A DNA stretch of 64,000 bases from Rickettsiales bacterium (GTDB lineage: Bacteria > Pseudomonadota > Alphaproteobacteria > Rickettsiales > RI-342). Shown here in pieces: positions 7,777 through 8,732 of this stretch. The stretch spans positions 2,985 through 66,984 of the forward strand of contig JBIPLF010000005.1 of NCBI GenBank assembly GCA_044368015.1, in the 5' to 3' direction. Within the stretch, counting starts at the first letter, position 1. Each line of letters starts with the position of its first letter. The notes under the pieces are model-generated. The model worked only from the letters and a program-made list of their open reading frames with translations. It searched no databases and was not told where the DNA came from. The translations under genes were made by a program, and so were the position numbers.

Positions 7777-7804
7777 TATGTGAGCAGGAGAGTGCCCATG
7801 CCGT

Positions 7805-7846
7805 GCCAGTTGCCAGTTGCCAGTTGCCAGTTGCCAGTTGCCAGTT
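7805..7846 (+). repeat. Heptanucleotide tandem repeat (GCCAGTT) x6
   Basis: Six perfect direct copies, read directly from the sequence. They lie between an SD+ATG (7786-7800) and the pilin-like ORF. Confidence 0.95.
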
Positions 7847-7859
7847 AGGGTTTGGTAGG

Positions 7860-8732
7860 ATGTTCAGGGAATCAAGGCTTCGTGAGATGCGTGGCGTGCT
7901 CCCTCTCCCTGTGGGAGAGGGCCGGGGTGAGGGCCGGGGTGAGGGCTTACCTGTAGGCGTTCGTGTTTTCCCTCACCCTTCCCTCTCCCACAGGGAGAGG
8001 GTTTACGCCTCTCCCGGCTTTACGCTGGTGGAACTCTCCATAGTCCTCGTTATCATCGGCTTGATCCTCGGCGGGGTGATGGTAGGCCGAAGCATGATCC
8101 GCTCCATGCAGGTCAATCGCGTGGCTTCCGACCTTGAGGCCTACGCCGCCGCTGCCCAGATGTTCGTCGATAAATATCGAGGGCTTCCGGGGGATATGAC
8201 CAACGCCACCACTTTCTGGTCCAGCACCATCGTGGCGAATGGGAATGGCGATGGGCAGATAAATTATGCTGGTGCCGCCAGCACTGCCGGAGAGATGTTC
8301 GGGGCGTGGGAGCAAATGGCGCTCGCTGGGTTGATTAAGGGGACATACACCGGAATTGCTGGGTCGGGAAGTATTCAACATTCAGTCCCTGCAAACAGTC
8401 CAAAGGGGCCACTCTCTGCTACAGGCTATAGCTGGTTCTGGTGGGGAAATGCTGCATCCAATGCCTATATATACGATGGCTACTACGGTAATGCCATTAT
8501 ATTTGGTGGTTTCAACCTGACCAGCGTAAGCGACACAGGCGCTTTAGCTCCAGCAGAAGCTTACGGTATCGACCTCAAAATTGACGATGGTGTGCCAGGG
8601 ACCGGGAACATTTCCACCTATCATACCCACACCGCTTGCAACACCGGTACCGCTACCACCGGCTCTACCTCGACCTACATAACCACTTCTTCTGTCATCG
8701 ATTGTAATATCATCTTCAAAACCGGGCTGTAG
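7860..8732 (+). CDS. Prepilin-type N-terminal cleavage/methylation domain protein (small pilin-like paralog 1)
   Basis: GFTLVELSIVLVIIGLILGGV at codons starting 8016. Paralog of 39474-40220 and 40625-41344, sharing motifs YxGLPGD, NGDGQI, GLIKG and IDLKxDDGxP. The start is ambiguous (GTG 7803, ATG 7860, ATG 7887, GTG 7911) and the leader is abnormally long. Confidence 0.8.
   Translation: MFRESRLREMRGVLPLPVGEGRGEGRGEGLPVGVRVFPHPSLSHRERVYASPGFTLVELSIVLVIIGLILGGVMVGRSMIRSMQVNRVASDLEAYAAAAQMFVDKYRGLPGDMTNATTFWSSTIVANGNGDGQINYAGAASTAGEMFGAWEQMALAGLIKGTYTGIAGSGSIQHSVPANSPKGPLSATGYSWFWWGNAASNAYIYDGYYGNAIIFGGFNLTSVSDTGALAPAEAYGIDLKIDDGVPGTGNISTYHTHTACNTGTATTGSTSTYITTSSVIDCNIIFKTGL
7899..8001. repeat. 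Palindromic repeat element lying inside the pilin leader region
   Basis: CTCCCTCTCCCTGTGGGAGAGGG...GGTGAGGG // CCCTCACC...CCCTCTCCCACAGGGAGAGGG form an imperfect inverted repeat. Confidence 0.8.

Follow-up and report, generated by a model that had tools for sequence, protein, structure and literature searches.

The systems closest to the locus described here carry a short tandem repeat at or near the start of a gene. In Neisseria, CTCTT repeats occupy leader-peptide codons of ~11 scattered opa paralogs (PMC3745409). In prophage CUS-3 of Escherichia coli K1, the 5' coding region of neuO contains (AAGACTC)n, the gene being ON only if n is divisible by 3, and 34% of the neuO genomes are ON (PMC13001214). 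Heptamer repeats are also found in the promoters of hmw1A and hmw2A of Haemophilus influenzae (PMC2651432) and, as TAACTGA units, before start codons in Beggiatoaceae (PMC4679880). In the present study, we analyzed a (GCCAGTT)6 tract that lies between a start codon and the body of a type IV pilin-like gene in a 64,000-nt stretch of DNA (the whole of which is hereafter called the window) from a Rickettsiales bacterium (GenBank assembly GCA_044368015.1, contig JBIPLF010000005.1, positions 2,985 to 66,984 of the forward strand). An initial annotation of this DNA had described the arrangement as the geometry of a slipped-strand contingency locus. Our analysis indicates that the tract is probably the mutable element of a translational phase-variation switch on the pilin-like gene, of the opa/neuO family of mechanisms, and that it belongs to a 5' module (hereafter, the cassette) present in 18 of the 33 pilin paralogs of this genome.

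Like the opa genes, the cassette-bearing paralogs form a scattered surface-protein family in which each gene has its own Shine-Dalgarno (SD) sequence, its own ATG, and a non-triplet repeat within the coding sequence of a leader whose removal is predicted. In opa, slippage turns each copy ON or OFF independently, and most copies are OFF at any time. The present repeats differ from those of opa in having a unit of 7 nt, not 5, in being present at lower copy numbers (1-9), and in comprising six different units within one family; moreover, the proteins are type IV pilin-like and not outer-membrane beta-barrels, with a presumably cytoplasmic prepilin leader of 18-136 amino acids (aa) that contains translated palindromes, not a Sec signal peptide. 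The likeness to neuO lies in a heptamer placed just inside the 5' coding region, with one of three copy-number classes giving the full-length product, and in the share of ON alleles, which is about one-third there and 7 of 18 here. In neuO, however, 3-53 repeats are carried by one gene alone, and the repeat peptide is retained in the enzyme, whereas here short tracts are distributed over a multigene family and the repeat peptide is predicted to be removed.

The hmw repeats, the TAACTGA repeats, and the cyanobacterial short tandemly repeated repetitive (STRR) sequences are likewise 7-nt tandem units beside gene starts, and the heptamer is also the over-represented period in this genome. Those repeats are found in promoters or untranslated leaders, whereas the tract studied here follows an SD and an ATG, and none of the 18 cassettes has a stop in the pilin frame between tract and pilin. 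Rickettsia palindromic elements and other intragenic repetitive extragenic palindromic (REP) sequences offer a further comparison: the palindrome at 7893-8009 in the leader, like those in the other cassettes, belongs to genome-wide hairpin repeats that are read in frame and without stops, a description that fits the palindrome and not the heptamer tract. Such elements explain how the leaders are filled, but not the solo tract after SD and ATG or the TAG-bearing linker behind it. A literature search found no paper describing this arrangement. New here are the target (a 33-member pilin-like family with 18 cassettes and six repeat units), the long, palindrome-filled, translated leader, and the host, an uncultured alphaproteobacterium with a small genome.

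Geometry of the start region

The start region is largely as initially annotated. ATG 7798 is preceded by an AGGAG at a spacing of 7 nt and followed by six perfect GCCAGTT units, the frame of this ATG ends at TAG 7846-7848 after a 16-aa peptide (MPCQLPVASCQLPVAS), and the pilin frame is open across the whole tract up to GFTLVEL, with the predicted cleavage site at 8016-8021 (Table 1). Tandem Repeats Finder (TRF) places the tract at 7804-7846, with 6.1 copies and 100% matches, and a pattern of three heptamer units gave 0 chance matches among 100 shuffles. When we rebuilt the locus in silico with copy numbers from 2 to 11, ATG 7798 reached the pilin at n = 4, 7, and 10; the claim that four or seven copies fuse the two is thus confirmed, and ten copies can be added. 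In the other copy-number classes, the frame of ATG 7798 stops 1-4 codons past the tract, at TAG 7846 or TAG 7856. Two hallmarks of contingency loci are therefore found here, namely a perfect non-triplet repeat in the 5' coding region after an SD-served ATG, and (in silico) a one-unit change that toggles between the full-length product and early termination.

One part of the initial annotation requires correction. ATG 7860, ATG 7887, GTG 7896, and GTG 7911 had been given as the only in-frame starts, all lacking an SD. These four codons are indeed in the pilin frame without an SD, but they are not the sole in-frame starts, as GTG 7803 had been missed. This codon lies upstream of the tract and is the first codon of the 309-codon open reading frame (ORF) 7803-8732. 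It is only at n = 2, 5, 8, and 11 that the rebuilt locus has no SD-served start in the pilin frame. With GTG 7803 lying in the pilin frame, six copies probably do not switch the gene fully OFF, and the present state may be weak rather than silent.

In the mechanism that we propose, translation would initiate at the SD-served ATG 7798, the ribosome would pass through the (GCCAGTT)n tract and the long palindrome-bearing leader, and translation would then enter the pilin, from which prepilin peptidase would remove the leader at G/FTLVEL (the slash marks the predicted cleavage site). Since 7 = 1 mod 3, slippage by one unit would shift the ATG to one or the other of the two frames that end within 4 codons past the tract. 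With n = 1 mod 3 (4, 7, or 10 copies), the ATG would be in frame and the gene fully ON; with n = 0 mod 3, as in the present six copies, only the poorly spaced GTG 7803 would be in frame and expression would probably be weak; with n = 2 mod 3, no start would be in frame and the gene would be OFF. In the non-ON states, the ribosome would halt before the hairpin of -98 kcal/mol, which would then fold and may, more speculatively, silence the internal starts downstream. We infer that ATG 7798 is the start in actual use and that the length of the tract changes at a useful rate.

Table 1. Positions of the features discussed, numbered from the first letter of the window
Feature	Position	Strand	Remarks
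Shine-Dalgarno sequence AGGAG	7786..7790	+	7 nt before ATG 7798; 12 nt before GTG 7803
Cassette start ATG 7798 with 16-codon out-of-frame reading MPCQLPVASCQLPVAS ending at TAG 7846	7798..7848	+	Present 6-copy state
Alternative start GTG	7803..7805	+	In the pilin frame at 3, 6, and 9 copies, hence now
(GCCAGTT)x6 perfect heptanucleotide tandem repeat, proposed slipped-strand tract	7805..7846	+	A change of +/-1 copy shifts the frame by one
Frame closers TAG 7846-7848 and TAG 7856-7858	7846..7858	+	Stop the two non-pilin frames within 4 codons past the tract
Type IV pilin-like open frame	7803..8732	+	Predicted cleavage between G 8016 and F 8019; stop codon 8730-8732
Palindromic REP-like element, two inverted CCCTCTCCC...GGGAGAGGG(N)GGGGTGAGGG arms	7893..8009	+	Read through in the pilin frame, no stop
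Second cassette paralog in the window	40581..41344	+	ATG 40581, then directly (CTCAGCA)x4.6 at 40584-40615; ATG out of frame
Third paralog in the window	39474..40208	-	Ordinary short leader MDNRG/FSLVEL, without a repeat of its own
Weak sigma-70-like promoter match TAGACA-18-TAGACT	7734..7763	+	Consensus match only (9/12), no functional evidence

A pilin-like family with a shared 5' module

The genome was assembled from a metagenome and represents an uncultured alphaproteobacterium (1.92 Mb in 87 contigs, 57% G+C, rated 100% complete). A tblastn search revealed 33 pilin paralogs in it, with amino-acid identities of 33-79%. Fifteen of them have ordinary leaders with good SDs, such as GGAGGTGAGGGG-ATG MHTIKKRESEG/FTLVEL. 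The remaining 18 share the cassette, which consists of an SD, an ATG, a heptamer array, a linker, palindromes, and (A)SPG/FTLVEL. An SD-like purine block is located 3-10 nt before the pre-array ATG in every one of the 18 cassettes, and a second ATG or GTG in another frame is often found 4-6 nt after the first; the dual ATG/GTG geometry of the present locus recurs in the paralogs C11:4421 and C23:8504 (named by contig and position). Six heptamer units are used across the cassettes (GCCAGTT, GCCAGTC, CTCAGCA, CTCAGCC, TTTCCAG, and CCTGCAC), in 1.1 to 9.4 copies. The usual linker is GTAGGGCGTAGCGGCGG, whose two TAGs close both non-pilin frames; it occurs in 10 other cassettes and is specific to them, since all 10 close matches genome-wide (0-2 mismatches) fall in pilin cassettes. 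Each cassette leader further contains one to three palindromic repeats.

The cassettes resemble one another only from the ATG onward, with unrelated sequence on its 5' side. From the ATG to ~70 nt past the array, the 5' modules are 82-90% identical, compared with 65-68% nucleotide identity and saturated synonymous divergence (dS) for the gene bodies (e.g., C33:24143 versus C33:18907). This difference suggests either constraint at the nucleotide level or exchange or homogenization of 5' modules between paralogs. In a protein tree, cassette-bearing and ordinary-leader paralogs are interleaved, and the well-supported branches cannot be reconciled with fewer than 4 changes; we accordingly rejected a single origin for the cassette, whose history would be one of gain, loss, or exchange. 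Silent cassettes of the pilS type were also considered and rejected, as no paralog lacks an SD, an ATG, or a complete N-terminal helix of its own.

The heptamer arrays are concentrated at these genes. We counted 38 perfect heptamer arrays of at least 3 copies genome-wide, compared with 26 for period 4, 4-7 each for periods 5, 6, and 8, and none for period 9. GCCAGTT/AACTGGC accounts for 15 of the 38. Within 450 bp upstream of a pilin paralog there are 13 of the 38 arrays versus 0.29 expected (P ~1e-17), and among arrays of at least 5 copies, 8 of 9 are in pilin cassettes. In addition, the pilin arrays are longer than the other heptamer arrays (median, 5.3 versus 3.0 copies; P = 3e-4).

The encoded protein has the expected marks of a type IV pilin-like protein, that is, a G/F-x-x-x-E motif with a hydrophobic helix, and GFTLVELSIVLVI is conserved among the paralogs. 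It matches PF07963 (N_methyl) at 21.8 bits (cut-off, 21.2) and TIGR02532 at 24.2 bits (cut-off, 16.3), while a search of the NCBIfam profiles gave no equivalog-level match. An AlphaFold2 model built with 58 homologs (predicted local distance difference test score, 95) has a lollipop shape, with an N-terminal helix of ~50 residues (residues 6-56) and a globular head. The top fold matches in the PDB are pilins, albeit weak ones (PilA1 of Clostridioides difficile, 6t8s, TM-score [TMt] 0.59; FimA of Dichelobacter nodosus, 3sok; E values of 0.13 or worse), and no solved structure comes close to the modeled head. The family has more than 3,000 relatives in databases, under names that include "type II secretion system protein [Rickettsiales bacterium]". 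The genome also encodes processing and assembly machinery: six T2SSE ATPases, two secretins, and two prepilin peptidases (Peptidase_A24), one of whose genes neighbors that of a PilB-like ATPase. A scan of 185,579 species genomes with exact short peptide patterns, which detects close relatives only, gave as its sole match a protein of Rhodopirellula europaea 6C (NZ_ANMO01000208.1) that is 37% identical over residues 3-236. From this match, the head domain may also be present in the pseudopilin-like families that have expanded in Planctomycetes.

We also looked for the cassette outside this genome. Approximately 50 homolog leaders, taken from five close relatives and several more genomes of the order, are all short and lack tandem repeats except for one ATG x5 run; no orthologous tract for comparison was found among the sampled related genomes. 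Since the related leaders are short and repeat-free, the module appears to be a lineage-specific innovation. An exact-protein search with lipA read from its TTG start gave no match. In a separate observation, a European Nucleotide Archive metagenome contig (GROS21-1; L037:1383-1491) contains a 68%-identical pilin homolog in which an ATG is followed by a C12 homopolymer, one base off the KG/FTLVEL frame. Loss of one base from the run would restore the frame, and the gene adjoins an IS110 transposase. The C12 run may be a homopolymer version of the switch, or it may reflect chance or an assembly error.

Two further paralogs, of opposite strand, stand head to head and diverge within the window (40581-41344 and 39474-40208). 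In the first of these, a cassette paralog, a classical start (ATG 40625, MRSPRQQG/FTLVEL) lacks an SD, and the short frame from ATG 40581 runs over it. Upstream of the locus itself, ORF 7362-7736 (+; 124 codons; 101 aa as called by the Joint Genome Institute [JGI]) has no Pfam match and ends before a terminator-like hairpin at 7750-7768; this hairpin overlaps the promoter-like match listed in Table 1, which lies upstream of the cassette. The window contains more heptamer runs, at 52875-52902, 61302-61332, 61991-62015, and 62359-62384, composed of TCAGGAT/CAGGATT x3-4 and CAACTGG x3.7, the latter corresponding to GCCAGTT on the opposite strand. Two of these runs (52881-52902 and 61996-62015) are inside long ORFs, and those at 61302-61332 and 62359-62384 come from the TRF list only. 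The sole long non-pilin array in the genome, (GTCAGGG)x7.9, lies outside the window on contig C64 (12159-12213). It abuts, on the opposite strand, the ATG of a gene that appears lgt-like from its N-terminus, at the place where an SD would be expected, and it forms one arm of a composite of a heptamer run, a hairpin, and inverted degenerate heptamers.

Frame states, selection, and the stop-free leader

In 7 of the 18 cassettes (C58:47527, C58:84867, C40:354, C83:22656, C29:14578, C25:11004, and C67:23897), the SD-served ATG reads in frame and without a stop into the pilin; in the other 11, it is out of frame. This proportion is close to the one-third in frame that is expected of a freely switching tract. 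At least 14 genes of the family carry a tract that is long enough to slip. Among the cassettes with at least 2.6 copies (n = 14), the ATG is in frame in 6 and a GTG in 1 (the present locus), and 7 have no start in frame. Among those with fewer than 2 copies, which are unable to slip, an SD-served start is in frame in 3 of 4 (one ATG and two well-spaced GTGs).

The mature ORF is intact in each of the 32 complete paralogs, without internal stops or frameshifts; 30 of these ORFs encode 227-260 aa, and two are longer (343 and at least 500 aa). The ratio of nonsynonymous to synonymous divergence (dN/dS) between paralogs is ~0.1 (0.07-0.25) at a dS of >1.3, i.e., with synonymous sites saturated, and it is 0.09 between the present copy and its nearest relative, C86:70126, in both of which the ATG is out of frame. 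As the ORFs are intact and dN/dS remains ~0.1 even between two out-of-frame copies, the out-of-frame copies are not decaying pseudogenes. Genes that have long been kept while their start is now out of frame are the picture expected for reversible switching, and out-of-frame alleles with intact bodies under selection are a feature of contingency loci. In addition, cassettes whose post-tract flanks are 82-90% identical differ in copy number (3.0 versus 6.0, and 6.1 versus 3.9), which is an indirect hint that tract length has changed.

The leader between array and pilin bears its own signature. Summed over the 18 cassettes, the sequence from the array end to GFTLVEL comprises 2976 nt (~992 codons), with 0 stops in the pilin frame, 52 in a second frame, and 30 in the third; the chance of finding 0 stops at the rate of the other frames is ~7e-19. 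Because of this difference, we conclude that the leader is kept translatable. The stop-free leader frame, together with internal ATGs that lack an SD and a pre-array ATG that always has one, argues that translation begins before the tract and runs through a leader of 18-136 residues. At the present locus, the leader would be 72 aa long from GTG 7803, or 76 aa from ATG 7798 at 7 copies. Prepilins usually have ~5-30 residues before the cleavage-site glycine (8016-8018 here), and the cassette leaders, at 18-136 aa, do not conform to this short-leader pattern. The long leader presumably stays in the cytoplasm and is cut off at G/F.

Several palindrome families fill the cassette leaders, all of them being read in the open frame. 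RNA folding of the 7893-8009 palindrome gave a minimum free energy of -98.6 kcal/mol (z = -6.9). Genome-wide, the palindrome cores have 15-172 strand matches per family, and the core of the element at this locus (REP-A) has 172, which correspond to ~86 sites because the core is palindromic. An Rfam search of the leader returned sub-threshold microRNA-like hairpin matches only, which are meaningless here.

Alternative explanations and implications

The contingency reading of the initial annotation gains support from 17 further paralogs with the same module of SD, ATG, tract, and closed frames, from leaders that are stop-free in the pilin frame only, and from the coexistence of in-frame and out-of-frame copies with intact, selected bodies. 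This amounts to strong, though indirect, evidence for a putative switch. Several observations weigh against such a switch. With its six copies, the present locus has GTG 7803 in frame and may be expressed without any switching. Six cassettes (the present locus, C63:19025, C86:70126, C33:24379, C33:19200, and C65:28175) have two starts in two frames, 4-6 nt apart, and 5 of the 6 are in the third, startless frame; this excess of fully OFF dual-start cassettes is beyond what a neutral random walk predicts. The paralogs are not independent samples, and each tract length is a consensus from a metagenome-assembled genome. Stop-free heptamer and palindrome repeats are common in frame within the housekeeping genes of this genome, and a cleaved leader is a permissive site, where the tract could be a tolerated passenger. 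Moreover, we know of no precedent among prepilins for leaders of 50-136 aa with strong hairpins. Database searches brought no second example: exact-protein matches (lipA from its ATG start and the 281-aa pilin) were confined to the source contig (JGI 3300059473) and a Logan contig of 1.1 kb that lacks the locus, the matches of P0011 and P0015 came from the same sample, the post-tract flank motif had 0 matches in metagenome contigs, and the linker motif had 0 matches in genome contigs and one in metagenomes, on a high-GC contig without a cassette, which is likely due to chance.

The passenger account holds that selfish, stop-free repeats have gathered in a permissive, cleaved leader, that their length changes are not used as a switch, and that OFF-looking copies are expressed from other starts, be it GTG 7803, the second ATG, or reinitiation after the short upstream frame. 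It draws on the housekeeping ORFs just mentioned, many of which carry the same heptamer units, on the genome-wide abundance of the palindrome cores, on the in-frame position of GTG 7803, and on the well-spaced in-frame GTGs of two cassettes with ~1 copy (in C11 and C23). Nevertheless, in seven cassettes of at least 3 copies the pilin frame lacks any SD-served start, although their bodies are intact under selection. The linker with its two TAGs is found in cassettes only and is conserved at the nucleotide level, the pilin arrays are significantly longer than others and include 8 of the 9 longest, and they stand solo, directly after SD and ATG, unlike the composite repeat with its two facing runs around a hairpin. 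On balance, we consider the passenger account unlikely.

It is very doubtful that the tract belongs to an untranslated 5' leader in which it tunes transcription or the fate of the mRNA, with translation beginning at an internal start (ATG 7860 or 7887 here, 40625 in the second cassette). The JGI gene caller does begin the gene at ATG 7887 (281 aa), three short cassettes retain a classical M-basic-G/F leader 9 nt past the array, and intergenic heptamers near starts have precedents (PMC2651432, PMC4679880). Set against this are the ~992 array-to-pilin codons without an in-frame stop, compared with 82 stops in the other two frames, and the lack of an SD at the internal starts, whereas the pre-array ATG always has one. 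Furthermore, homology between paralogs starts at the upstream ATG, and several cassettes have no in-frame ATG, GTG, or TTG near G/F (e.g., ...RERVYA-SPG/F). The notion that the out-of-frame copies are dead or dying pseudogenes, or that the copy number is an assembly artifact, can point to the 11 of 18 cassettes that are out of frame with their own ATG and to a metagenome assembly of 87 contigs, several of which break at pilin genes. We regard it as highly improbable, given 32 complete paralogs without internal stops or frameshifts, a dN/dS of ~0.1 between OFF copies at saturated dS, and a leader frame that is intact as well. As for an artifact, the perfect 42-nt tract is flanked by unique sequence and is probably shorter than a typical short read. 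Programmed ribosomal frameshifting and transcriptional slippage were also considered, and no slippery motif is evident on the tract.

A switch at this single tract thus remains our preferred explanation. We extend it to the whole family only tentatively, as something that may well be but that we would not yet assume: a combinatorial, opa-like contingency acting on type IV pili through at least 14 scattered, tract-bearing pilin genes, some of them three-state, with a TAG-bearing linker and long leaders that are translated and then cut off. To our knowledge, nearly all known cases of phase variation through repeats come from a small number of host-adapted pathogens, and those involving pili mostly concern accessory genes. 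The present locus would extend the same logic to a family of 33 pilus subunits of an uncultured alphaproteobacterium from the environment, whose genome is 1.9 Mb. It also shows prepilin leaders of up to ~136 residues that are filled with translated palindromes and kept open by selection, and such long translated leaders bear on the tolerance of prepilin peptidase and of membrane insertion. If the tracts do switch, a clonal population would show many different combinations of pilins, which would provide bet-hedging for attachment, for the recognition of prey or host, or for escape from pilus-specific phages.

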